This document shows, one piece after another, positions 2 to 10,473 of a stretch of 35,038 nucleotides of DNA. The position numbers and the translations under genes were made by a program. Origin of the DNA: Bacteroidota bacterium (GTDB lineage: Bacteria; Bacteroidota; Bacteroidia; Bacteroidales; VadinHA17). Where the stretch lies: assembly GCA_034659155.1 (NCBI GenBank), contig JAYEGO010000328.1:1-35038 (forward strand), read 5' to 3'. The notes under the pieces are model-generated. The model was given only the letters and a program-made list of their open reading frames with translations, did no database searches and was not told the origin of the DNA. Positions within the stretch are counted from its first letter, which is position 1; the number at the start of each line of letters is the position of its first letter.

Positions 2-316
2 GGGGGAATTTTTCTATTCCTTGGAGGCCTGGGAATTGTAAGAATGCCGGATGCCTATAATCGTTTGCAGGCAGGTACAAAAGCTACTACCCTTGGAGGT
101 ATGAGCCTGATACTCGGAGTTGGCCTGATGGAAACTTCCTGGCTGATAAAAGCTATGGTGATTATTATATTTATTGCTTTTTCCAACCCAATTAGCTCGC
201 ATGCTCTTGCCAGGGCAAATTATAAGCGCAAGAACTTTCCTTACCTGAAAAATGAAAAAGGAGTGGATGCTTATCAGGAGGCTTATTTAAATGAAAACAA
301 GGAGGAACAATCATGA
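2..316 (+). CDS. Mrp/Mnh antiporter subunit G-like membrane protein (MbxC/MbhC-type), 5' end outside the window
   Basis: The frame is open from the window edge (GGIFLFLGGLGIVRMPDAYNRLQAGTKATTLGGMSLILGVGL). This matches the MnhG/PhaG signature G-x-x-R-x-PD-x-Y-x-R-L-x-A...T-x-G. The stop overlaps the next start (ATGA at 313-316). Confidence 0.8.
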   Translation, partial: GGIFLFLGGLGIVRMPDAYNRLQAGTKATTLGGMSLILGVGLMETSWLIKAMVIIIFIAFSNPISSHALARANYKRKNFPYLKNEKGVDAYQEAYLNENKEEQS

Positions 317-585
317 TTATATACTTGATATTTCTATTTATACTGTTGGCCCTGATGGTTGGAGCTGCAGTTTATTCTATTCTACAAAAAGATCTTCTTT
401 ATGCAGTGATAGGAACCGGGGTTATTAGCCTTGTGCTTTCGGTTTTATTTTTCATACTTCAGGCACCAGATGTAGCACTTACTGAAGCAGCCATTGGGGT
501 AGCTCTTACAACCATTATCTTCATTATAACCATAAGAAATACGGTTAGATATGAAGATGAACGTGACCGGAAGGAAAATAAATAA
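313..585 (+). CDS. DUF4040 / MbhD-MbxD-type small membrane subunit (MrpB N-terminal-like)
   Basis: 90 aa with about 3 TM helices. The motif LQAPDVALTEAAIGVALTT is typical of DUF4040. The start is translationally coupled to the previous gene. Confidence 0.75.
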   Translation: MIIYLIFLFILLALMVGAAVYSILQKDLLYAVIGTGVISLVLSVLFFILQAPDVALTEAAIGVALTTIIFIITIRNTVRYEDERDRKENK

Positions 586-601
586 TTAAAAATCAGATAA
601 G

Positions 602-1297
602 GTGAAAAAAGTACTGGTTCTATTGCTTTTAGTTGTTTTTGGGGTTTATCTGGCAGATGTGTTGTTCAGCCTGGAATTTGGCAAACAGTTTTTTACAGAT
701 GGGGTAAAGGATTTTTATCTTACAAAAGGCCCTATGGATTTGAAAGTTTCCAACACTATTACAGCTATCATTGTAAACTTCAGAGGTTTTGACACCCTGG
801 GTGAGGTTACTGTTTTGTTTCTAGCTACCACCGCAATGGGGGGTATCTTATATAAGAAAAGACATAAAGTAGGGGCGCGCACGGTTTTATTTCCTTCCAG
901 CCAAATTGTAATGGCAGGTTCAAAAATTTTGTTTCCGGCCATCATACTTTTAGGAATATATGTATTTGTGCACGGCCATCTTACTCCCGGGGGTGGATTT
1001 CAGGGGGGAACTATAGTTGCCACAGGATTTTTATTGATGCTATTGGCATACCAGGATTATACTGTAAGTCACAAAGTTTTGACCATAGTAGAATCATTTG
1101 CCGGAATCACTTTTGTGGTAATTGGTTTAATGGGGCTGATAAAAGGAAGCACTTTTCTTGAAAATTTCATGCCGGTGGGAAGCTTGAATAATTTATTCAG
1201 CGGAGGCCTTATTCCTATTATTTATATTGTTGTTGGACTTAAAGTAGGTGCAGAGCTATCCGGCTTGATATATACTGCCTTGCACGAAAAAGATTAA
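602..1297 (+). CDS. MnhB/MrpB-domain membrane subunit (MbxF-type)
   Basis: GTG start. ITAIIVNFRGFDTLGEVTVLF is the hallmark of the MnhB domain. The protein is polytopic. Confidence 0.8.
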   Translation: MKKVLVLLLLVVFGVYLADVLFSLEFGKQFFTDGVKDFYLTKGPMDLKVSNTITAIIVNFRGFDTLGEVTVLFLATTAMGGILYKKRHKVGARTVLFPSSQIVMAGSKILFPAIILLGIYVFVHGHLTPGGGFQGGTIVATGFLLMLLAYQDYTVSHKVLTIVESFAGITFVVIGLMGLIKGSTFLENFMPVGSLNNLFSGGLIPIIYIVVGLKVGAELSGLIYTALHEKD

Positions 1298-1301
1298 GGA
1301 T

Positions 1302-1715
1302 ATGGATCAAATAAATTTTGATATTAGCATTGTAGAGTATGGCTTTTTTATCTCAGCTGTCCTGGTAATACTAATTGGACTGTATGGAGCGTTGGTAAAA
1401 AAATCCCTGATTAAAATTGTTATCGGACTCTCTATCCTTGAATCCGGGGTTAATCTTCTGTTAATAACAATTGGTTATATCCAGGGAGGTACTGCTCCTG
1501 TTTTTTCGCCACAACTACTTAAGGATATGCCCTTAACATTTGAAAATATTAGAAACCTTGGAAATGAAATGGTAGATCCTGTTCCTCAAGCCCTGGTATT
1601 GACAGCCATTGTAATTGGCTTTGGAGTAACAGCTGTTGCTCTTGCCCTGGTAATCAGGTTATACAGGCATCATCATACACTTGTTATTGACGAAATAAAG
1701 AATTTAAAATGGTAG
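1302..1715 (+). CDS. MnhC/NuoK-like membrane subunit (MbxG-type)
   Basis: 137 aa with 3 TM helices. LIGLYGALVKKSLIKIVIGLSILESGVNLLLITIGY resembles the MnhC/NuoK family, including the intramembrane Glu. Confidence 0.8.
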   Translation: MDQINFDISIVEYGFFISAVLVILIGLYGALVKKSLIKIVIGLSILESGVNLLLITIGYIQGGTAPVFSPQLLKDMPLTFENIRNLGNEMVDPVPQALVLTAIVIGFGVTAVALALVIRLYRHHHTLVIDEIKNLKW

Positions 1716-3202
1716 GAAGCCCTATTCTTTTTGTGGCCGTTCCCCTGTTGGCGGCATTTCTGATTCCCCTGCTCGGTTTTATCTGGAAAGAGCTGGTGCG
1801 AATAGTTCCCGGAATCGTGCTTTTGTATTTATTGATATTATCTGTTAGCCTTTACATCCAGGTACTTCAGGATGGGACTATTGTTGAACAAATTGGTGGC
1901 TGGGCTCCTCCCTGGGGAATAAACCTGGTTTTTAGTCCTTTTACAGGCTTGCTGACTACTTTAATGTTATTCCTTGCCTTTATCATCTGGATGTATAGCT
2001 ACCGTTTTAAGAATGTTGATTTTGAGCCATCAAAAAAATATTTTATTCTCCTGTTAATGCTGGTTACCGGTTCCATAGGAATTGTGCTTACCGGAGACAT
2101 TTTTAACCAGTTTGTGTTTATAGAAATTATGAGCATTTCGGGATATGCCCTTACGGCTTTTTATACAGGTCGTGACAGTGCAGAAGCATCTTTTAAATAC
2201 TTAATAATGGGTTCATTATCAGGTATGTTCTTACTCCTGGCCATTATTCTAATATACTCTCAACTTGGAACTTTAAATATGGCTGAAATTGCTTCTAAAG
2301 CACATTTAATGAAGCCGGAATTCAGAGTTCTTGCTTTAGTATTTTTTATCGTGGGCATGGGAATTGAAGCTGAAATATTTCCACTCAATGGCTGGGCTCC
2401 TGATGCGTATTCACAAGCTCCCGGACCAATTGGAGCCGCTTTTTCTGGGATTGTAGTCAAAGCTGGAATTTATTCCATTATCAGGGTAACTTTTACTCTT
2501 TTCGATGTTGAAGGTTCCATGCAATTCCTTGTACTGATGGGAATGATTACCCTGGTGGTAGCAGAAATAGCTGCCATAAAGCAGGATAAAATAAAAAGAA
2601 TGCTTGCTTATTCCAGCATTGGCCAGATGGGGCTGGTTCTTGTAGCCTTCGGCATTGGTACTGAAGAAGGTGTTTTTGCCGCTTTATTTTTAATGGTAAA
2701 TCATGCCCTCATTAAGCCTCTTCTGTTTCTTTCCGGTAGTTACCTTGTATTTAACTCTACGGAAAAAAACATACGTGAGCTTAGTGGCCTGGGGAAATAT
2801 TTGCCGCTTACATCTTTCTTGTTTGCCCTGGGAGCTATTGCCATTGTGGGGATGCCGCCATTGTCGGGTTTTTGGGCTAAATGGTCTATGCTTACAGCTG
2901 CAGCAAATTCAAATATGATCCTGGTCATTGGACTTGTATTGATGGTTAGTATCGTAGAAATTGTTTATTACTTCAGGGTGGTTAACCGCATCTATTTCTT
3001 CAAGAAGGAAGAAGATGTTGAACCAAAAAAACCCACTTTAAATGCAATGGCATCCATGATTGTACTGGGGATTCTTATTGTTGCCATTGGGTTTTATCCT
3101 GATCTCATTACCTCTTATCTGCATGAAGCTTCAGAAAGTTTAATGGATAAGGGAAAATATATTCAAGATGTTCTTTCTGCAGGACAGTCAATAATTCAAT
3201 AA
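1709..3202 (+). CDS. Antiporter-like proton/sodium-pumping subunit 1 (MnhD/NuoN/HyfB family; MbxH-like)
   Basis: 497 aa, polytopic. Family motifs: EAEIFPLNGWAPDAY, KRMLAYSSIGQMG, HALIKPLLFL, MPPLSGFWAKW. The start overlaps the previous stop by 7 nt. Confidence 0.85.
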   Translation: MVGSPILFVAVPLLAAFLIPLLGFIWKELVRIVPGIVLLYLLILSVSLYIQVLQDGTIVEQIGGWAPPWGINLVFSPFTGLLTTLMLFLAFIIWMYSYRFKNVDFEPSKKYFILLLMLVTGSIGIVLTGDIFNQFVFIEIMSISGYALTAFYTGRDSAEASFKYLIMGSLSGMFLLLAIILIYSQLGTLNMAEIASKAHLMKPEFRVLALVFFIVGMGIEAEIFPLNGWAPDAYSQAPGPIGAAFSGIVVKAGIYSIIRVTFTLFDVEGSMQFLVLMGMITLVVAEIAAIKQDKIKRMLAYSSIGQMGLVLVAFGIGTEEGVFAALFLMVNHALIKPLLFLSGSYLVFNSTEKNIRELSGLGKYLPLTSFLFALGAIAIVGMPPLSGFWAKWSMLTAAANSNMILVIGLVLMVSIVEIVYYFRVVNRIYFFKKEEDVEPKKPTLNAMASMIVLGILIVAIGFYPDLITSYLHEASESLMDKGKYIQDVLSAGQSIIQ

Positions 3203-3213
3203 GCCAATAGAAG

Positions 3214-5064
3214 ATGAACAGTATAGTTTTAATATTTGGTATATTTCTGGGTGGAGCAATCCTCACTTACCTTGCTCATAAGCTTTCGTATATTTTAAGC
3301 AGTGCATTTTTTGTTTTAACAATTTTTACGGCAGCTGCTCTATTTTTTTTGAAAGTGGAAATAGGAGATGTTTTTTCATTTTCCCTTAATGGTTTATACC
3401 TGGAATGGGGTATTACCCCTTTTAGCTGGATTTTCACTCTCATTGTACTTGGGTTGGGAACCATGGCTGCAGTGTATAGTGTTTCCTTTATGAAAGGGAA
3501 AGACCGGCTGGGATATTTTTATTTCAATTTTATTCTTGGCATTTTTTCCATGATGGGTATCCTGTTAAGCAGGGATCTGGTTTCTTTTTTCATTTTCTGG
3601 GAAATTATGACCTGGTCTTCATACATGATTGTTGTTTATGAAGGTAAATCGGTACAGAAGACTGGCATTAAATATATATTTTTCAGTGCTGTAGGTGCCT
3701 ATGCCATGCTAATGGCTATTGTTATAAGTTATGGCCAAATTCACAGTGTACTTATAGAAGACTTAATTTACTCGTTTTCATCATTTTCATTATCCTATCA
3801 AATCTGGCTACCTCTGTTATTCCTAACAGGGTTTGGTGTAAAAGCTGCCATGATGCCTTTACATGTTTGGGCTCCAGGAGCTTATAGTCACTCCCCAATG
3901 GCATATACATCAGTGTTTTCCGGAGCACTCTCAAAAATGGGCGTATATGGTATGGTACTGGTTTTCGCAAGCCTTCTTACGCAACTCCCCGAGCATACAT
4001 TAATTCGGGAAGTCGTAGCCTGGTTAGGTGCTATAACCACTGTTATGGGAACTTTGTGGGCAGTTGCGCAAGACGATGCAAAAAAATTACTGGCTTATTC
4101 TTCAGTTGCCCAGCTAGGTTATATTATTGTTGGGGTAGCAATTGGCACAGAGCTTTCAATGTTGGCAGCAATTTTTATGTCAGTGCTTCATGCATTATTT
4201 AAGGGAACCCTGTTTATGGTTGTTGGGGCTATTGAAAAACAAACCGGCACTACCAACTTAACTGAAGTAACCGGGCTGATAAGAAAAATGCCATGGACAT
4301 TTATTGCCGCCCTGATGTCTATCATTGCCCTGGCAGGAATTCCTCCTCTTGGTGGTTTTGTCGGCAAATGGATGCTTTACGAGTCATTGATAGGAAGTGA
4401 TCATTATATTCTGGTAATACTCATATTTTTTGCCAGTACTGCAGGGTTCCTTTATTGCTATAAATTCTTGTTTGGATTCTTCCTCGGACAGGAGGAAAAA
4501 GAATGGGATCATGTAAAAGAAGCTCCTGCCTCTATGGTAATACCCATGCTTATTCTTTCTTTCTTTTCTTTTTTATTGGGAACCTTCCCAGGCCTGATAT
4601 TAAAACCTATAGATCAGGGAATGCAAAGCCTGGGCTACGCTGCTACAGAAGGTCATTATTGGGATATGTCTGTTTTATTTAATGAATGGGGAAATGCTGT
4701 GATGCTTCAACCAATTCTCTATGCAATTATGGCCGTATTCCTTTTCTTTTTGATCTTTTTAACTCTTAAAAGTTTTAAAGGAACAAGGTATGTAACTACT
4801 AAAGATATCAGTAGTTCAGGTGAAGTTCCGGGAGAATTTGAAAATCTTTCTTTTAAAGAAAACTTTTTTCAGCCATTCTTACGTGCAGTGGAACCTGTAA
4901 TGAAAAAGCAAATTGACAAGTATTATACAGCTATTGGAAACGGAATTGAAGCCTTTTTTAACTATGCCAGGCGAGTTTATAGTGGCAATGGACAAACCTA
5001 TGCCATCTATGTTATTGTTTTCCTTGTGATCTTATTGTTATTTAAGAGCAATTTGTTTGGATAA
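3214..5064 (+). CDS. Antiporter-like pumping subunit 2 with C-terminal extension (NuoL/MnhA/MnhD family; MbxH'-like)
   Basis: 616 aa. Motifs: VKAAMMPLHVWAPGAY, KKLLAYSSVAQLGY, HALFKGTLFM, IPPLGGFVGKW. The C-terminus has one TM helix, then about 70 polar/amphipathic residues, then a final TM helix. Confidence 0.85.
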   Translation: MNSIVLIFGIFLGGAILTYLAHKLSYILSSAFFVLTIFTAAALFFLKVEIGDVFSFSLNGLYLEWGITPFSWIFTLIVLGLGTMAAVYSVSFMKGKDRLGYFYFNFILGIFSMMGILLSRDLVSFFIFWEIMTWSSYMIVVYEGKSVQKTGIKYIFFSAVGAYAMLMAIVISYGQIHSVLIEDLIYSFSSFSLSYQIWLPLLFLTGFGVKAAMMPLHVWAPGAYSHSPMAYTSVFSGALSKMGVYGMVLVFASLLTQLPEHTLIREVVAWLGAITTVMGTLWAVAQDDAKKLLAYSSVAQLGYIIVGVAIGTELSMLAAIFMSVLHALFKGTLFMVVGAIEKQTGTTNLTEVTGLIRKMPWTFIAALMSIIALAGIPPLGGFVGKWMLYESLIGSDHYILVILIFFASTAGFLYCYKFLFGFFLGQEEKEWDHVKEAPASMVIPMLILSFFSFLLGTFPGLILKPIDQGMQSLGYAATEGHYWDMSVLFNEWGNAVMLQPILYAIMAVFLFFLIFLTLKSFKGTRYVTTKDISSSGEVPGEFENLSFKENFFQPFLRAVEPVMKKQIDKYYTAIGNGIEAFFNYARRVYSGNGQTYAIYVIVFLVILLLFKSNLFG

Positions 5065-5079
5065 AAAAAATTAAAATAC

Positions 5080-5991
5080 ATGGAGTCTATGGTATATAAT
5101 ATTGCAGGAGCCCTTGTTACACTTATTCTTGCATTTGTAGTTGGAATGACCTACATGGGGCTTAGCCGGAAGATTACGGCAAGAATTCAAAACAGATATG
5201 GCCCTCCATTTTATCAAAATTTCATTGATGCTGTAAAACTCTTATCTAAGAGTACAGCAATTCATCATGGATTAATGCAACACATGGGACCGGCATTTAT
5301 TATGGTTACTTCAGTGTTATCCTTGATGATAATCCCGATTTTAAATGGGAATGCATTCTTTACCAATATGAATTTTCATGGGGACCTTATTTTTCTATTA
5401 TATATAATGACTTTTGGTCCACTGGGAATGGCTCTTGGTGCAGGTCAAACAGGGAATCCTAATTCTGCGATAGGTGTAACACGTGGCCTAAGCCAGATGG
5501 TTGGTTTTGAAATACCATGGGTTATGGCCATTATTGCTTTGATGATCCAGTTTGATACCAGCTCTATTGTGGATATTATGGACATTCAGGTTGCATCAGG
5601 GAAATGGATAATGTTTACTTCACCCTTCGCTTTTGTGGCAGCCCTGTTGGCGATGTTCGGGATGTTCCGTTATTCTCCGTTTGACATTGTTGGAGCACCA
5701 ACAGAGCTGGCTTCTGGTCCTGTATCTGAAAATGGAGGGAAGTACCTCTTTACCCTCATGTCAGCAAATTCAATCTTTGCTTTTGCAAAACTCACATTGT
5801 ATGTAAATCTTTTCATGGGAGGTGCTGACAACTTGGTTATACTACTAGTAAAAACATTTGCCCTGTATATGATTCCTTTACTTTATGGTACGGTAAATCC
5901 ACGATACAGAACAGAACAGGCAGTCAGATATTTTTGGGGATGGCCCAGTTTTTTTGGCTTGCTGGCAATTCTTTACGCTGTTTTTTTATAA
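5080..5991 (+). CDS. NuoH/HycD/MbhM-like membrane subunit (MbxM-type)
   Basis: RKITARIQNRYGPPFYQNFIDAVKLLSK is the conserved N-terminal NuoH/ND1 motif. About 8 TM helices. Confidence 0.85.
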   Translation: MESMVYNIAGALVTLILAFVVGMTYMGLSRKITARIQNRYGPPFYQNFIDAVKLLSKSTAIHHGLMQHMGPAFIMVTSVLSLMIIPILNGNAFFTNMNFHGDLIFLLYIMTFGPLGMALGAGQTGNPNSAIGVTRGLSQMVGFEIPWVMAIIALMIQFDTSSIVDIMDIQVASGKWIMFTSPFAFVAALLAMFGMFRYSPFDIVGAPTELASGPVSENGGKYLFTLMSANSIFAFAKLTLYVNLFMGGADNLVILLVKTFALYMIPLLYGTVNPRYRTEQAVRYFWGWPSFFGLLAILYAVFL

Positions 5992-6002
5992 AAAGTACAG
6001 AC

Positions 6003-6548
6003 ATGTTTAACGATAAGAATTCTCAAAAAATAGTTGATATCATCCAGAATCATGCCAGGAAACATTCCCTCTGGGTCTTGGCTTATGGTACAGGTTGTGG
6101 TGCTATTGAAATACCTCCTACCATGACTTCGAGGTATGATGCTGAACGATTGGGTGTGAGGGGAGCTGCCACACCAAGACAGGCTGATCTTTTGCTGATT
6201 ACAGGATATCTGACTACTAAAACTCTGAAAAGGGTTATTCGTGTTTATGAGCAAATGCAAGATCCCAAATATGTGATTGGATTCGGTTCCTGTACTATTA
6301 ATGGTGGTATGTATTATGATTCTTATAACACCATAAATGCATTGGATCGCTACCTTCCTGTAGATGTTTATATAAATGGTTGTATGCCGCGACCCGAAGC
6401 AGTGATTGCAGGTTTTGGCATGCTGCAGGAATTAATTGCTGCAGGAAAAGCCAATGGCGCCACGAAGTATAAAGAAAATCTTGACTGGTATCGTAAAAAC
6501 CAGCTGAAAGTGATCCCCAACTGGGTGATGCCTGAGTATAACTGGTAG
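6003..6548 (+). CDS. NuoB / [NiFe]-hydrogenase small-subunit-like Fe-S protein with only three Cys (MbxJ-type)
   Basis: Motifs GTGCGAIE (canonical GLACCAVE), GFGSCTINGG and INGCMPRPE. The start is taken at the ATG at 6003, just after the NuoH-like stop; the ORF-track start at 5934 overlaps that gene by 58 nt. Confidence 0.85.
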   Translation: MFNDKNSQKIVDIIQNHARKHSLWVLAYGTGCGAIEIPPTMTSRYDAERLGVRGAATPRQADLLLITGYLTTKTLKRVIRVYEQMQDPKYVIGFGSCTINGGMYYDSYNTINALDRYLPVDVYINGCMPRPEAVIAGFGMLQELIAAGKANGATKYKENLDWYRKNQLKVIPNWVMPEYNW

Positions 6549-6589: not shown

Positions 6590-7156
6590 ATGAAAGAGAA
6601 AAAAGCGAAACTAATTGAGCAGGTAAAAAGTCATTTTTCCGCAGCAAGCGAAAATAATTTTGATTATAACCGGCTCGATTTTACAATCAATAAGGAGGCC
6701 GTATCGTCTATTTTATTTTACTTAAAAGAAGAAATGGGATACGTCCATCTTTCTCATATTAGCTGTGTAGACTGGATTGAGGAAGAAGAATTTGAGTTGG
6801 TTTTTATCATCTGGTCACCTGTTGATAGAATAAAAGTATTCATTCATACCCGTATTGACAGGAATAATCCTGTAATGGATAATCTTGATATGATCTGGAG
6901 GCAGGCTAATACTTATGAACGGGAGATAAAAGAAATGTATGGCATTGAATTTCCCGGATTGGAGGCTCCGGCCGATTTTCTGCTTGAAGATTGGAATGGG
7001 ATGCCTCCAATGCGCAGGGATTTTGATTCGCTGGCTTATGCTAAAGACACATTTTATGATCGCCCCGGAAGGGAAGATGCCAGGGATGTCAGGGAAGAAA
7101 TTGCGCGTCGCTCCGGAGAAGAGATACCTGATTTTGCAAAAAAATATTCCAGATAA
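6590..7156 (+). CDS. NuoC/30-kDa-subunit-like protein (MbxK-type)
   Basis: WRQANTYEREIKEMYGIEFPGLEAP matches the NuoC signature ERE-x2-(D/E)M-x-GI-x-F. The stop abuts the next ATG. Confidence 0.85.
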   Translation: MKEKKAKLIEQVKSHFSAASENNFDYNRLDFTINKEAVSSILFYLKEEMGYVHLSHISCVDWIEEEEFELVFIIWSPVDRIKVFIHTRIDRNNPVMDNLDMIWRQANTYEREIKEMYGIEFPGLEAPADFLLEDWNGMPPMRRDFDSLAYAKDTFYDRPGREDARDVREEIARRSGEEIPDFAKKYSR

Positions 7157-8260
7157 ATGAGAGAAAAAGCAACAACCTTATATATCGGGCCACAGCACCC
7201 GGGGATTACTGGAAATATGATGGTTCGCCTGAAGGTGGAAGGAGATACTATTGTTAAAGCTACCACAGAAGTAGGTTATCTTCATCGTTCCTTTGAGAAA
7301 TTAGCTGAAAAGAGAAACTGGTTGCAAACCTTTACTTTAATGTGCAGGTTTTGCGTTCCTGAACCTGACCCGGTTGAAGAAACTTATTCGCGTGCCGTTG
7401 AACTGCTGGAAGGACGTTCTGTTCCTGAGAAGGCTAAATTTTTACGTGTACTGGTACTGGAATTAGCCAGGATTTCTTCCTATCTTCTTTGGTATGGTGG
7501 ACAGGGAGCCTCCCTGGGTCTGTATACTATCGGCCAGTGGAGTGTTGGAGATCGAAATTATATCCTGGATCTTTTTGAAGAACTTACAGGTGCCAGGATA
7601 TATCATATGTTTATCTGGCCGGGAGGCGTACGAAGAGATATGCCGGATGGATTTGAAAAAAGGGTATTGAAAACCATGGATTACCTGGAAAGCAGGCTTG
7701 ATGATTATGAAGCCCTTATGTTTGACAATGCCATTTTTAAGAAAAGAACACAGGGCGTAGCTATCATAGATAAAGAAAAGGCCATAGAATGGGGTGTGGT
7801 AGGTCCTCCTTTAAGAGGCTGTGGAATTAAAAGCGATATACGTATTGATGATCCTTATGAGGTGTATGATCAACTTGATTTTGATGTGCCAACTTATGAA
7901 GGAGGAGATATTTGGGCCCGGGCACTTGTACGAAGAGATGAATTAAGACAATCTATTCGAATTGTAAGGCAGGTTATTGCCAAAATGCCCGGAGGTTCTT
8001 ATTATAATAAAGTGCCTAATCCTCAAAAGTGGACAATGCCTAAAGGAGATGCATATGCCCGTACTGAGGCTGTTCGTGGCGAAATAGGTTTTTATGTGGC
8101 CAGTGATGGAGGAACCAATCCCAGGCGTGCTCATATGAGAGGAGCCGCTTATGTTCACGGAATTACCCTGCTTGAAGATATGCTCAAAGGAGCTAACATA
8201 GCAGATGTTTCATCAATAATGAATAGCCTGGGGACTTGTCCACCGGAAATAGAACGCTAA
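7157..8260 (+). CDS. NuoD / group-4 [NiFe]-hydrogenase large-subunit-like catalytic subunit (MbxL-type), incomplete Ni-Fe ligand set
   Basis: IGPQHPGITGN is the N-terminal beta-hairpin motif. LMCRFC (C63, C66; nt 7343-7354) lies where RxCGxC is expected. The C-terminal GTCPPEIER lies where DPCxxCxxR is expected: C361 (nt 8237-8239) is kept and the fourth Cys is replaced by Glu. Confidence 0.85.
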   Translation: MREKATTLYIGPQHPGITGNMMVRLKVEGDTIVKATTEVGYLHRSFEKLAEKRNWLQTFTLMCRFCVPEPDPVEETYSRAVELLEGRSVPEKAKFLRVLVLELARISSYLLWYGGQGASLGLYTIGQWSVGDRNYILDLFEELTGARIYHMFIWPGGVRRDMPDGFEKRVLKTMDYLESRLDDYEALMFDNAIFKKRTQGVAIIDKEKAIEWGVVGPPLRGCGIKSDIRIDDPYEVYDQLDFDVPTYEGGDIWARALVRRDELRQSIRIVRQVIAKMPGGSYYNKVPNPQKWTMPKGDAYARTEAVRGEIGFYVASDGGTNPRRAHMRGAAYVHGITLLEDMLKGANIADVSSIMNSLGTCPPEIER

Positions 8261-8273
8261 AGTTTGTTAAAAT

Positions 8274-10070
8274 ATGAGTTTTTTTGATTTAAAAGGAACA
8301 TTGAGCCCCTTAACTGCCCTGAAGCAGTTCGGGAAAAAGCCACATACAATTGAATATCCAAAAGTGGATAAAGAAGCTGCTGATCGTTACCGGGGTTTCC
8401 ATTATAATGAACTGGAGGAATGTATTGGTTGTGGTAATTGTTCAACAATATGTCAGAATGCAGCCATTGATATGATACAGGTTGAGGGACAGGAAGGCTC
8501 AAATGGAGACTCAGGTTTAAGGCCTCGTGTTGATAATGGAAGGTGTTGCTGGTGCGGATTATGTGTAGATGTATGTCCTACAGGAAGCTTGAGTCTCACC
8601 AAAGAGTATCTGTATGTAAGTGATGACCCTGATTCTTTTTTATTTACTCCAGGAGTAGATAATCCAAAAGGAAAAGACAAACTATCTTTCTTTAGTACAA
8701 AAGAAGCCAGTCTGAACGATTTTGCAAGAATTCCTATGCCGGAGCTAGAAGGAAAAGATAGAATAAAATCCTTTGCAGAAGTGGTACTTGGATACAATGA
8801 GGAGCAGGCACGGGCAGAAGCAAGCCGGTGTATAAGTTGTGGCCTGTGTAGTGAAGCATGCCCCGAGCATATGCATATCCCGGAATATATCAATGCTATA
8901 GCCAGTGGGAACGATAAAGATGCAGTACGGATTATATATGATAACAACCCCCTGCCTGAAATGTGCGGTAAAGTTTGTACCCGTAGGTGCGAGGATGTTT
9001 GTGCAATACAAACCCGTGGTGATGCACTGGCTATTCGCTGGTTGAAGAGATATGCAACGGAGACAGCTGAAAATGCTGATATTGTTAAAGAAATTGTTAA
9101 TCCCGAGATCAAAGAGGCCAATGGTTATAAGGTGGGAATTGTAGGAGCAGGACCTTCTGGCTTAACAGCTGCCTATTATCTTGCCCTTCGTGGGTTTGAT
9201 GTTAGCATTTACGAGTCAAATAAACAGGCGGGAGGTATGACCATGTATGGTATTCCAAAATACCGCTTCCCGGAAAATAGCCTGCAGAAACAAATTGATT
9301 ATATTACTTCTATTGGTGTGAAAATCCATTTCAGTACCCAGGTAGGAAAAGACATTAGCTTTGAGGAGATTTATAAGCAAAGTGATGCTGTATTTATGGG
9401 TGTTGGCTTCCTGAAACCATGGACACTTGGCATTGAGGGAGAGGAGTTGAAGGGCTCAGGACAGGCGGTGACATTCTTGCATGCTGTAAACAGTGGCTTG
9501 CAGGTAGATATTGGAAATAAAGTAGCGGTTATTGGTGGTGGTAATGTTGCAATTGATGCTGCTCGTGTATCTGCACGACTTGGAGCAGAAGTAAGTATCC
9601 TTTATCGTAGAAGGGTTGAAGACATGCCAGCTGACTGGGAGGAAATTGAAGGAGCCGAGGATGAGGGTATACACATTGAACCACAAGCCATTCCTATTAA
9701 GTTCCATAGTGATGAAAATGGCAGAATTATGTCAGTGGAATACCTGAAAGCGGAAATGGTGGTTGATGAAGCCGGTGGAAGACCAAAGCCAGTAGCCATT
9801 GAAGGCAGCAATACAATTATGGAAATAACTGCCATACTGGGAGCTATTGGTCAGCAAGGAGATTACAGCTTCCTGGAAGGCGAGTTTGCTGAAAAAATAA
9901 AAGTCGACAGGGGAAGAATTGTAGTAAATGATAATCAACAAACTACCGATCCTAAAGTCTTTGCCGGAGGTGATGCAGTGAATCGCACCGCAGATGCTAT
10001 CTCTGCCATTGCAGATGGATTTCGTGCTGTGAAAGGTATTGAAGAAATGCTGGTAAAGAAAAAGAAGTAA
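8274..10070 (+). CDS. Fusion protein: NuoI/MbhN-type 2x[4Fe-4S] ferredoxin subunit (aa ~1-115) joined to a GltD/SudA/NfnB-type Fe-S flavoprotein, an NAD(P)H oxidoreductase (aa ~150-598)
   Basis: N-terminal part: CIGCGNCSTIC and CCWCGLCVDVCP. C-terminal part: RCISCGLCSEACPEHMHIPEYI...LPEMCGKVCTRRCEDVC (GltD N-terminal Fe-S region), VGIVGAGPSGLTAAYYL (FAD), VAVIGGGNVAIDAAR (NAD(P)H) and VFAGGDA. It is one uninterrupted 598-codon ORF. Confidence 0.9.
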   Translation: MSFFDLKGTLSPLTALKQFGKKPHTIEYPKVDKEAADRYRGFHYNELEECIGCGNCSTICQNAAIDMIQVEGQEGSNGDSGLRPRVDNGRCCWCGLCVDVCPTGSLSLTKEYLYVSDDPDSFLFTPGVDNPKGKDKLSFFSTKEASLNDFARIPMPELEGKDRIKSFAEVVLGYNEEQARAEASRCISCGLCSEACPEHMHIPEYINAIASGNDKDAVRIIYDNNPLPEMCGKVCTRRCEDVCAIQTRGDALAIRWLKRYATETAENADIVKEIVNPEIKEANGYKVGIVGAGPSGLTAAYYLALRGFDVSIYESNKQAGGMTMYGIPKYRFPENSLQKQIDYITSIGVKIHFSTQVGKDISFEEIYKQSDAVFMGVGFLKPWTLGIEGEELKGSGQAVTFLHAVNSGLQVDIGNKVAVIGGGNVAIDAARVSARLGAEVSILYRRRVEDMPADWEEIEGAEDEGIHIEPQAIPIKFHSDENGRIMSVEYLKAEMVVDEAGGRPKPVAIEGSNTIMEITAILGAIGQQGDYSFLEGEFAEKIKVDRGRIVVNDNQQTTDPKVFAGGDAVNRTADAISAIADGFRAVKGIEEMLVKKKK

Positions 10071-10084
10071 AACAAGACTATATA

Positions 10085-10117
10085 ACTCACCGGGTGACTC
10101 GTAGTCACCCGGTGAGT
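10085..10117. terminator. Bidirectional stem-loop terminator between convergent genes
   Basis: Perfect 15-bp inverted repeat ACTCACCGGGTGACT / AGTCACCCGGTGAGT with a 3-nt loop, 15 nt after the + strand stop and 6 nt after the - strand stop. No strong T-tract. Confidence 0.6.
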
Positions 10118-10122
10118 GGATT

Positions 10123-10473
10123 CTATTCAAATTCTTTAGGAACCCCACAAATCAGCACCAATGATTTATCCCGGGATTTATTCCGGTACTGATGTTTCTC
10201 GTTTGGCTTAACAAGCGCAAAATCTCCTGCCTGAATCGGAGTTTCTTTTCCTGCCTCATTTACCAGTGCCCCTTCCCCTTCAATTATATAATTCATGTGC
10301 TCATAATTGTGCTGATGGTAGGGAGTATAACCTCCGGGATCAACGGTAAATACCCTGTATGAGTAAACAGGAGCACCATCATCCCTGGAAAGAGGAACCT
10401 GCTTCCATGCCTTATGTGCACCCTCCATGTTTACTTTATTCTTTTCAACTTTTTTTAGCGATATAACTTTCAT
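10123..10473 (-). CDS. Small cupin-domain protein
   Basis: 116 aa. The two cupin motifs are GGYTPYHQHNYEHMNYIIEGEG and GDFALVKPNEKHQYRN. Confidence 0.75.
   Translation of the reverse strand: MKVISLKKVEKNKVNMEGAHKAWKQVPLSRDDGAPVYSYRVFTVDPGGYTPYHQHNYEHMNYIIEGEGALVNEAGKETPIQAGDFALVKPNEKHQYRNKSRDKSLVLICGVPKEFE

Follow-up and report, generated by a model that had tools for sequence, protein, structure and literature searches.

Membrane-bound complexes of the Mbx/MBS type are viewed as forms intermediate between the energy-converting hydrogenases and complex I. The MBS of Pyrococcus furiosus (formerly Mbx, PDB 6U8Y) has two MrpD-type subunits, MbsH and MbsH', and holds its proximal [4Fe-4S] cluster by three cysteines of MbsJ, C28, C93 and C123, C25 being too distant; its MbsL subunit retains two cysteines, C85 and C385, without quinone ligands, and these features were proposed to be catalytic (Yu 2020, PMC7684303). 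The donor of this complex is free ferredoxin, and its subunit MbsN carries no flavoprotein. The bacterial Mbx complexes are usually drawn as ferredoxin:NADP+ oxidoreductases (Mesotoga preprint) and, since the work on MBS, also as ferredoxin-driven sulfur reductases. In the mbx-like operons of Thermotoga and of proteobacteria NuoI is replaced by a gltD-like product, which was read as a site of NAD(P)+ reduction (Degli Esposti 2015, PMC4758237). The locus described here lies in a stretch of 35,038 nucleotides of contig JAYEGO010000328.1 (assembly GCA_034659155.1; Bacteroidota, VadinHA17), the whole of which is called the window. At the MbxN position of an Mbx-type operon the window encodes one polypeptide in which the domain and motif analysis supports four predicted [4Fe-4S] sites, an FAD site and an NAD(P)H site. 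Compared with MbsN, this subunit thus adds predicted FAD and NAD(P)H sites and two clusters.

The gene is a single stop-free open reading frame (ORF) of 598 codons, in agreement with the first-pass annotation of the window, made from the letters alone, and each of the motifs named there is found in the translation. The polypeptide is divided as follows.

8274-10070, forward strand: MbxN-NfnB/GltD fusion protein, 598 aa (translation, Pfam, NCBIfam, solved-structure matches, homologue alignment, AlphaFold2 model)
8415-8585, forward strand: NuoI/MbsN-type dicluster domain with two predicted [4Fe-4S] sites, aa 48-104 (Pfam; MbsN 6u8y_N, 81 bits)
8625-8753, forward strand: family-specific linker between the modules, aa ~118-160 (conserved in homologues; predicted with confidence in the model)
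8760-9077, forward strand: Fer4_20 domain with two further predicted [4Fe-4S] sites, aa 163-268 (Pfam PF14691; alignment to NfnI-L and NfnB)
9126-10019, forward strand: predicted FAD- and NAD(P)H-binding domains, aa 285-582 (Pfam Pyr_redox_2; Foldseek; motifs GAGPSG, GGGNVAID and YRRR)

The three kinds of domain for which a Pfam scan had been proposed were all matched: a Fer4 dicluster (Fer4_7, Fer4_21) at aa 48-104, Fer4_20 (PF14691, 'dihydropyrimidine dehydrogenase domain II') at aa 163-268 with E = 9e-29, and Pyr_redox_2 at aa 285-582 with E = 8e-27. The NuoI models of NCBIfam cover aa 10-125 (92-96 bits), and the glutamate-synthase small-subunit and NfnB-type models cover aa ~150-597. The NuoI part contains the motifs CIGCGNCSTIC and CWCGLCVDVCP, with C50, C53, C56 and C60 and then C91, C94, C97 and C101 as predicted ligands. 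The flavoprotein part contains the cluster motifs CISCGLCSEACP and CGKVCTRRCEDVC, with C186, C189, C192 and C196 and then C231, C235, C239 and C243 as the ligands predicted within Fer4_20, followed by GAGPSG for FAD, GGGNVAID for NAD(P)H and FAGGD. After the second Rossmann strand stands the sequence YRRR (aa 441-444, nt 9594-9605).

Comparison with solved structures assigns the two parts to different families. For the N-terminal part the top match is P. furiosus MbsN (6u8y_N, 81 bits), against at most 49 bits for the NuoI chains of complex I; hence the connecting subunit of the NuoI/Mbx-type context proposed earlier stands, narrowed to Mbx/MBS specifically. The C-terminal part (aa 152-597) matches NfnI-L/SudA (5jca_L) with 317 bits and about 40% identity, Thermotoga maritima NfnB (4ylf_B) with 290 bits and GltD proper with 198 bits. 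The AlphaFold2 model, calculated from the alignment of 28 full-length homologues described below, has a mean predicted local distance difference test (pLDDT) of 88.5 and a predicted TM-score (pTM) of 0.84; the fold is compact, residues 1-36 alone are disordered, and the linker is ordered, with block pLDDT of 73-90. By Foldseek the C-terminal 470 residues of the model superimpose on NfnI-L (5jca_L) with a target-normalised TM-score of 0.90 and a root mean square deviation of 2.0 Å. The linker region (aa 105-165) has no similarity to PDB chains, the C-terminal extension of P. furiosus MbsN included, which gives no support to a descent of archaeal MbsN from the fusion by truncation.

NfnB and NfnI-L (SudA; 4YLF, 5JCA), large subunits of NADH-dependent ferredoxin:NADP+ oxidoreductase, are thus the best matches in sequence and fold, sharing with the window protein the FAD site, a two-cluster Fer4_20 domain and the residues YRR, which the alignment shows to be common to the fusion, NADPH-binding NfnB and NfnI-L. 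The window protein differs in that its first cluster motif, a plain CxxCxxCxxxCP, lacks the insertion seen in Nfn, that the module is covalently part of a membrane complex and that there is no NfnA partner. Nfn proper (NfnAB) was rejected, since neither the window nor the stretch conserved among the Bacteroidota loci was found to have a gene for NfnA (PyrK-like, with FAD and [2Fe-2S]). Glutamate synthase (GltBD) was rejected as well: GltD is the weaker structural match, no GltB is present in the window, and TIGR01317 and TIGR01318 give 199-286 bits, below their cut-offs of 448-483. The adaptor logic would nevertheless be that of GltD and of dihydropyrimidine dehydrogenase (DPD, PreT-PreA), in which electrons pass from NAD(P)H to FAD, to two [4Fe-4S] clusters and to a cluster of the partner.

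The conservation of the fusion was analysed in several collections. A search space of 5.8 billion proteins returned more than 120 clusters (90% identity), which is a lower bound, with 73-100% identity to the fusion; nearly all members are 595-602 aa long and cover the whole query. A one-genome-per-species scan found a relative in 211 genomes, and all of the 80 loci kept from it for locus-level analysis match the fusion from residue 1 to ~596. Among 1.84 billion cluster representatives, full-length fusions occur in about 13 clusters (50% identity), further matches being to the GltD-like part only. The named carriers of the full-length fusion are Thermosipho melanesiensis, a Spirochaetaceae metagenome-assembled genome (MAG) and Ca. 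Hydrothermae/WOR-3; complete genomes are found among the carriers, and the relatives come mostly from MAGs of hydrothermal and sulfidic sediment. The homologues aligned, 28 in number and all full-length, have identities as low as 40% and belong to Bacteroidota, Thermotogota (Thermosipho), Spirochaetota and Ca. Hydrothermae/WOR-3. All 16 cluster cysteines and the glycines of the FAD and NAD(P)H sites are invariant in the 28 sequences, and the linker (aa ~117-160) is in frame and conserved in length. The subunit with FAD and four predicted [4Fe-4S] sites that had been claimed from the window alone is therefore borne out by matched domains and by ligands invariant across phyla.

The position of the gene is equally constant. 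It lies directly 3' of the NuoD-like gene in 77 of the 77 related loci with enough flank, the whole gene order being colinear, so that the company of an Mbx operon, raised as a point to be checked, was found throughout; in Thermosipho and in the spirochaete the fusion gene is likewise the terminal one of the same 13-gene operon, directly after the NuoD-like gene. Two distant metagenome contigs (46-49% identity) carry the MbxN-like and GltD-like parts as separate adjoining genes (L165:59-1808 and L166:1-2497), the first of 131 or 176 aa and the second of 442 or 450 aa; in L166 the pair overlaps by ATGA and is preceded by a NuoD-like gene. Separate genes in orthologous loci had been named in advance as evidence that would speak against the fusion. 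They are confined to these distant relatives and are read as supporting the partnership: since distant relatives carry the parts as adjoining genes, the association of MbxN-like and GltD-like proteins predates their fusion. The same two contigs are all that favours reading the fusion as an assembly or frameshift artefact, or as a decaying pseudogene joining neighbours. The full-length homologues of ~596 aa in more than 120 clusters and in the 211-genome scan exclude an artefact, and with the complete genomes, the in-frame linker kept at the junction and the invariant ligands this explanation is counted as refuted, its probability being practically nil.

The architecture itself is not new, contrary to what the first-pass annotation implied. 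A paper of 2015 (PMC4758237) already describes it and interprets it likewise, in terms of NAD(P)+, and a curated model, NF010590 (PRK13984, 'putative oxidoreductase', 611 positions), exists in NCBIfam. The window protein aligns by aa 7-597 to positions 9-610 of this model with 646 bits, below its equivalog cut-off of 946 bits. The Thermosipho homologue (P0247) reaches 1195 bits, and NF010590/PRK13984 is therefore the Thermotogae fusion protein. The Thermotogae Mbx operon shares with the window the 13-gene order, the fused last gene, the order of domains and all predicted cofactor ligands; the identity between the fusion proteins is, however, only 40-45%, and the Thermosipho type has LE where the window protein has YRRR. 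Further differences lie in the NuoD-like subunit, which in Bacteroidota has an extra cysteine (CxxC), and in the NuoB-like subunit, which has lost a non-ligand cysteine there; many Bacteroidota operons start with a gene for a protein resembling dihydroorotate dehydrogenase (DHOD), and Thermosipho has a rubrerythrin-like gene downstream. The window protein is thus a divergent Bacteroidota member of the NADPH type, and its finding repeats, in a new branch at phylum level, an architecture that had already been published.

Ten genes precede the fusion gene on the same strand. With it they make up 11 of the 13 genes of the layout MrpE-F-G-MbhD-MrpB-MrpC-H-H'-NuoH-NuoB-NuoC-NuoD-NuoI, and MrpE and MrpF are found further upstream in every relative with enough flank. 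The features of the window around the fusion gene are the following.

2-316, forward strand: MrpG/MbxC-like antiporter subunit, truncated 5' by the window edge (NCBIfam MnhG models; frame open from nt 2; matches an N-terminally longer orthologue in L001)
313-585, forward strand: MbxD/MbhD-like (DUF4040) membrane subunit (NCBIfam PRK08378/DUF4040; colinear in all related loci)
602-1297, forward strand: MrpB/MbhE-like membrane subunit (NCBIfam PRK12567, 203 bits)
1302-1715, forward strand: MrpC/NuoK-like (MbxG) membrane subunit (NCBIfam MnhC models)
1709-3202, forward strand: MrpD/NuoN-like antiporter subunit, MbxH (NCBIfam PRK08377, 464 bits)
3214-5064, forward strand: second MrpD/NuoL/M-like antiporter subunit, MbxH' (NCBIfam PRK08668, 488 bits, full length)
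5080-5991, forward strand: NuoH/MbxM-like membrane anchor of the peripheral arm (NCBIfam NuoH models)
6003-6548, forward strand: NuoB/MbsJ-like subunit with the predicted proximal [4Fe-4S] cluster (MbsJ 6u8y_J, 221 bits)
6590-7156, forward strand: NuoC/MbxK-like subunit (NCBIfam NuoC models)
7157-8260, forward strand: NuoD/MbsL-like subunit (6u8y_L, 365 bits, full length)
10085-10117, no strand: perfect inverted repeat, arms of 15 bp and loop of 3 nt, separating the fusion gene from the cupin gene that converges on it
10123-10473, reverse strand: cupin gene, convergent with the fusion gene (window ORF)

The mechanical ORF of the NuoB-like subunit begins with TTG at 5934 and overlaps NuoH by 58 nt, while its orthologues have 181 aa; the true start is probably the ATG at 6003.

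The residues of the catalytic arm identify the kind of complex. The NuoD-like subunit matches MbsL (6u8y_L) over its full length with 365 bits, against 244 for Thermus thermophilus Nqo4 and 149 for MbhL, and the best solved match of the NuoB-like subunit is MbsJ (6u8y_J, 221 bits). The motifs of the NuoB-like subunit, GTGCG, GSCTING and INGCMPRPE, offer three cysteine ligand positions only. Its sequence AYGTGCGAIE aligns with AFCTGCGGIE of MbsJ; the equivalents of C28, C93 and C123 are kept and the position of C25 is occupied by glycine, the loss of this non-ligand residue being a difference from P. furiosus MBS. The single-cysteine NuoB motif occurs in 74 of 75 fusion-bearing operons. In the NuoD-like subunit Cys66 and Cys361 align with C85 and C385 of MbsL, with Cys63 as an extra cysteine, and the quinone ligands of Nqo4, H38 and Y87, are replaced by Thr18 and Val67. 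The motif C-R-[FI]-C-VPE is found in 74 of 76 fusion-bearing operons; the other two have proline in place of the first cysteine and are probably those of Thermosipho and the spirochaete. The operon is therefore classed from its sequences as an MBS/Mbx homologue, and neither as complex I nor as a hydrogenase: MbsL, MbsJ and MbsN score well above all other solved structures, the proximal cluster site offers three cysteines, both cysteines of MbsL have their counterparts, and quinone ligands are missing. Subunit set and order, the two MrpD-like subunits, the three-cysteine cluster site and the equivalents of C85 and C385 are all those of P. furiosus MBS.

The same residues bear on two other functions. 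In common with complex I the window complex would have an NAD(P)H-oxidising flavoprotein feeding an Fe-S chain through NuoI and NuoB to a membrane-coupled site. The flavoproteins are, however, unrelated (NuoF binds FMN, the GltD fold FAD), no tandem CC motif as in complex I is found in the NuoB-like subunit, the membrane arm is of the Mrp type and the NCBIfam scan found no NuoEFG genes in the window operon; with quinone ligands, tandem CC and NuoEFG all missing, complex I (NDH-1) was rejected. A compact complex I in a looser sense, an NAD(P)H:menaquinone oxidoreductase with the flavoprotein in place of NuoEFG and a membrane quinone as acceptor, would by our estimate have ample drive for two pumps, and the chamber of MBS is wide enough for hydrophobic substrates (PMC7684303). 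Such an enzyme is nonetheless improbable, given the replacement of H38 and Y87 by threonine and valine, the missing tandem CC and catalytic-arm subunits that match MBS far better than complex I.

An NADPH-dependent energy-converting [NiFe]-hydrogenase, evolving or taking up H2, is suggested by the Bacteroidota NuoD-like subunit, where Cys63-x-x-Cys66 (nt 7343-7354) forms a CxxC in place of the LxxC of MbsL and where, with Cys361, cysteine occupies three of the four [NiFe] ligand positions. The fourth, however, is glutamate (CPPEIER), the first is probably also missing in Thermosipho and the spirochaete, the proximal motif is the shortened one of MBS, the MbhL score is 149 bits against 365 for MbsL, and no hyp maturation genes lie within the window. 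Hydrogenase activity is therefore considered very improbable, and assignment to the group 4 [NiFe]-hydrogenases was rejected, the set of L1 (RxCGxC) and L2 (DPCxxC) motifs being incomplete, with glutamate at the last position.

The preferred role, to which we give about even chances, is that of an NAD(P)H-linked, ion-translocating sulfane-sulfur reductase whose subunit N carries a fused NfnB/GltD-type flavoprotein. NADPH would reduce the FAD of the flavoprotein, from which single electrons would pass through the two [4Fe-4S] clusters of Fer4_20 and then through the two of the MbsN-like domain. They would reach the MbsJ-like three-cysteine proximal cluster, in a chamber formed with the MbsL-like and NuoH-like subunits, where a sulfane-sulfur compound (polysulfide) would most likely be reduced; the two MrpD-like subunits, together with the Mrp module, would translocate H+ or Na+. 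The machine might also run in reverse if the redox poise favours it. Cofactor loading, a continuous wire, the preference for NADPH, the acceptor, the direction and the coupling to ions are what we infer here. Sulfane sulfur is the most likely acceptor because every feature proposed as catalytic in MBS is conserved. NADPH is suggested by the YRRR shared with NADPH-binding NfnB and NfnI-L; in alignment columns ~500-506, YRRR is found in the Bacteroidota and some others and LE or SLE in the Thermosipho-type branch, where by the general rules of Rossmann folds LE would be an NADH-like acidic signature. A link to sulfur is also given by the largely hydrothermal and sulfidic origin of the relatives together with the only expression datum, the 4.4-fold induction of T. 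maritima mbxA on S0 (PMC9431562), from a study that is silent on the flavoprotein domain. Of the NAD(P)H-linked, ion-translocating oxidoreductase put forward in the first-pass annotation, the anatomy is borne out by domains, operon and ligands, and the function is plausible.

Several points weigh against this role. From NAD(P)H to polysulfide the drop is only about 50-60 mV under standard conditions (our estimate from textbook potentials), which is little for two MrpD-like pumps, and the true acceptor, direction or stoichiometry may differ. The flavoprotein is nearest to bifurcating NfnB and not to a plain GltD adaptor, which hints at a more complex electron routing; docking of ferredoxin may still occur, and the co-operonic DHOD-like FMN protein of many relatives, described below, suggests a further redox site outside the scheme. 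Searches of the literature and of solved structures found no biochemical study or structure of any fused member, and the published models for T. maritima (PMC9431562) and Mesotoga (preprint) assume ferredoxin as donor.

The main rival is the original idea for Mbx, an Rnf-like ion-translocating ferredoxin:NAD(P)+ oxidoreductase, in which electrons would pass from ferredoxin reduced in fermentation through the MbsN-like clusters and the flavoprotein to NADP+ and a drop of ~150 mV would pump ions. The branch of Nfn that faces ferredoxin is the one with the [4Fe-4S] pair of NfnB, and the hosts are sugar fermenters. The window itself contains, at 10792-32023, a starch and maltose utilisation locus with a LacI regulator, SusC/SusD/SusE-F, an MFS transporter, a class II fructose-bisphosphate aldolase, three GH13 enzymes, of which one has 950 aa and a tail for type IX secretion, and one GH65, a family that includes maltose phosphorylase; its gene content points to a saccharolytic Bacteroidota host. 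The literature also reads bacterial Mbx in this way (PMC4758237; Mesotoga preprint, 'NADP:ferredoxin oxidoreductase complex'). The path would skip, however, the proximal cluster and the chamber, the coupling site of all complex I-like enzymes (PMC7684303), the strict conservation of the three-cysteine proximal cluster and of the MbsL-type cysteines would be left unexplained, and the fused module may cover the face of subunit N on which ferredoxin docks. Ferredoxin-dependent reduction of NADP+ is thus judged possible but unlikely.

A further redox partner is indicated by the gene order of relatives. In about 31 of the 47 fusion loci with enough upstream flank, a DHOD-like gene ends about 20-60 nt before MrpE on the same strand (examples are L083:9151-10152, L167:1-932 and L005:64-894) and is probably co-transcribed with the operon; the window starts inside MrpG, that is, 3' of the position of this gene, and an exact look-up of its MrpB product, meant to reach further upstream, matched no contig. 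The protein matches NF005741 ('dihydroorotate dehydrogenase-like protein') with 325 bits against a cut-off of 303. When metagenomes were scanned with it, the Mrp-Mbx operon was found directly downstream in 46 of 48 loci (those with a DHOD-like protein of at least 59% identity or linked to Mbx), while in the other two the contig, of 6.4 or 1.3 kb, stops right behind the gene. Ca. Sulfidibacterium hydrothermale, for which the literature search found no physiological paper, has a complete genome in which the DHOD-like gene is the first of a 14-gene array. The place of this gene at the head of many Bacteroidota operons may be a new finding. The closest solved structure is domain IV of pig DPD; the motif NLSCPH with the catalytic Cys671 is replaced by NLFVMP and there is no Fe-S domain, and by alignment the FMN-binding positions appear conserved. 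In DPD a GltD-like module, a ferredoxin domain with two [4Fe-4S] clusters and a DHOD-like FMN barrel are combined; all three are encoded in operons of Bacteroidota relatives, with the order of modules permuted and the DHOD-like protein a separate polypeptide without the catalytic cysteine. The presence of this module set suggests a third redox port in the Bacteroidota complexes.

Carried further, the DHOD-like FMN protein would dock on the fusion and either add a third site for a substrate or serve the NfnB-like flavin as a second outlet, the latter allowing bifurcation or confurcation tied to the membrane arm. The linkage in the fusion loci, in the metagenome loci and in one complete genome argues for such a machine, as does the nearness of its two parts to DPD domain IV and to bifurcating NfnB. 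Related DHOD-like genes also adjoin other GltD-like (L142) or FNR-like (L079, L081) flavoproteins. In L142:5184-10792, which is not from Bacteroidota, a protein of 840 aa (2Fe-2S, Nqo3-like 4Fe-4S, GltD-like module, DUF7508) is followed by a DHOD-like gene and, in our reading of the translations, would be preceded by two BcrA/HgdC-like activator ATPases. An FNR-like flavoprotein of 266 aa (PF00175) is the partner of another DHOD-like subtype, which shares 46% identity with the first; the pair is found in L079:11950-13774, just downstream of the fusion, and in L081:10001-11797, alone without any Mbx operon. The L079 gene was considered as a relocated gene of the first subtype and this was rejected in view of its 46% identity, its FNR partner and the Mbx-free pair, which makes it weaker evidence for linkage. 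Against the three-site machine stand the missing Fe-S domain and catalytic cysteine, and the linkage could be a clade-specific synteny. Moreover, the gene is absent from the Thermosipho and spirochaete operons and from about one third of the Bacteroidota loci, and DHOD-like is therefore not essential to the core role of the fusion. We consider docking of this kind doubtful. The same doubt applies to a 14-gene Bacteroidota complex in which DHOD-like would bind the NfnB-like module and which, as a membrane-bound relative of DPD or Nfn, would have ports for NADPH at FAD, for a substrate or pyridine nucleotide at FMN and for sulfane sulfur at the three-cysteine cluster, with bifurcation or confurcation coupled to the Mrp arm.

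Downstream of the fusion no conserved gene was found among the related loci. The hairpin at 10085-10117 of the window is probably a bidirectional terminator and the likely end of the operon. In the Thermosipho locus (L163) the operon is preceded by a divergent gene with Put_DNA-bind_N and CoA_binding domains, which in our reading would be of the Rex type, and followed by the rubrerythrin-like gene. In the spirochaete locus (L164) a separate pair of NfnA-like and NfnB-like genes lies downstream of the operon.

An NAD(P)H flavoprotein built into the connecting subunit would represent, unlike NuoEFG, a second and independent route by which this family acquired a port for pyridine nucleotides, and it revives literally the old idea that Mbx communicates with NADP(H). 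The fusion is widespread, being found in at least four bacterial phyla and in abundance in Bacteroidota of sulfidic and hydrothermal sediments, and the features proposed to be catalytic in MBS are kept alongside it. The linkage to DHOD-like genes opens a new way into a family of which little is understood and whose sole annotation is 'DHOD-like, possibly inactive'. Cultivable hosts, Thermotoga and Thermosipho, make the question of donor and acceptor directly approachable. If the complex is indeed an NAD(P)H-driven, ion-pumping sulfur reductase, the energy yields estimated for sulfur-reducing fermenters would change, since current models assume ferredoxin as the donor (PMC9431562).

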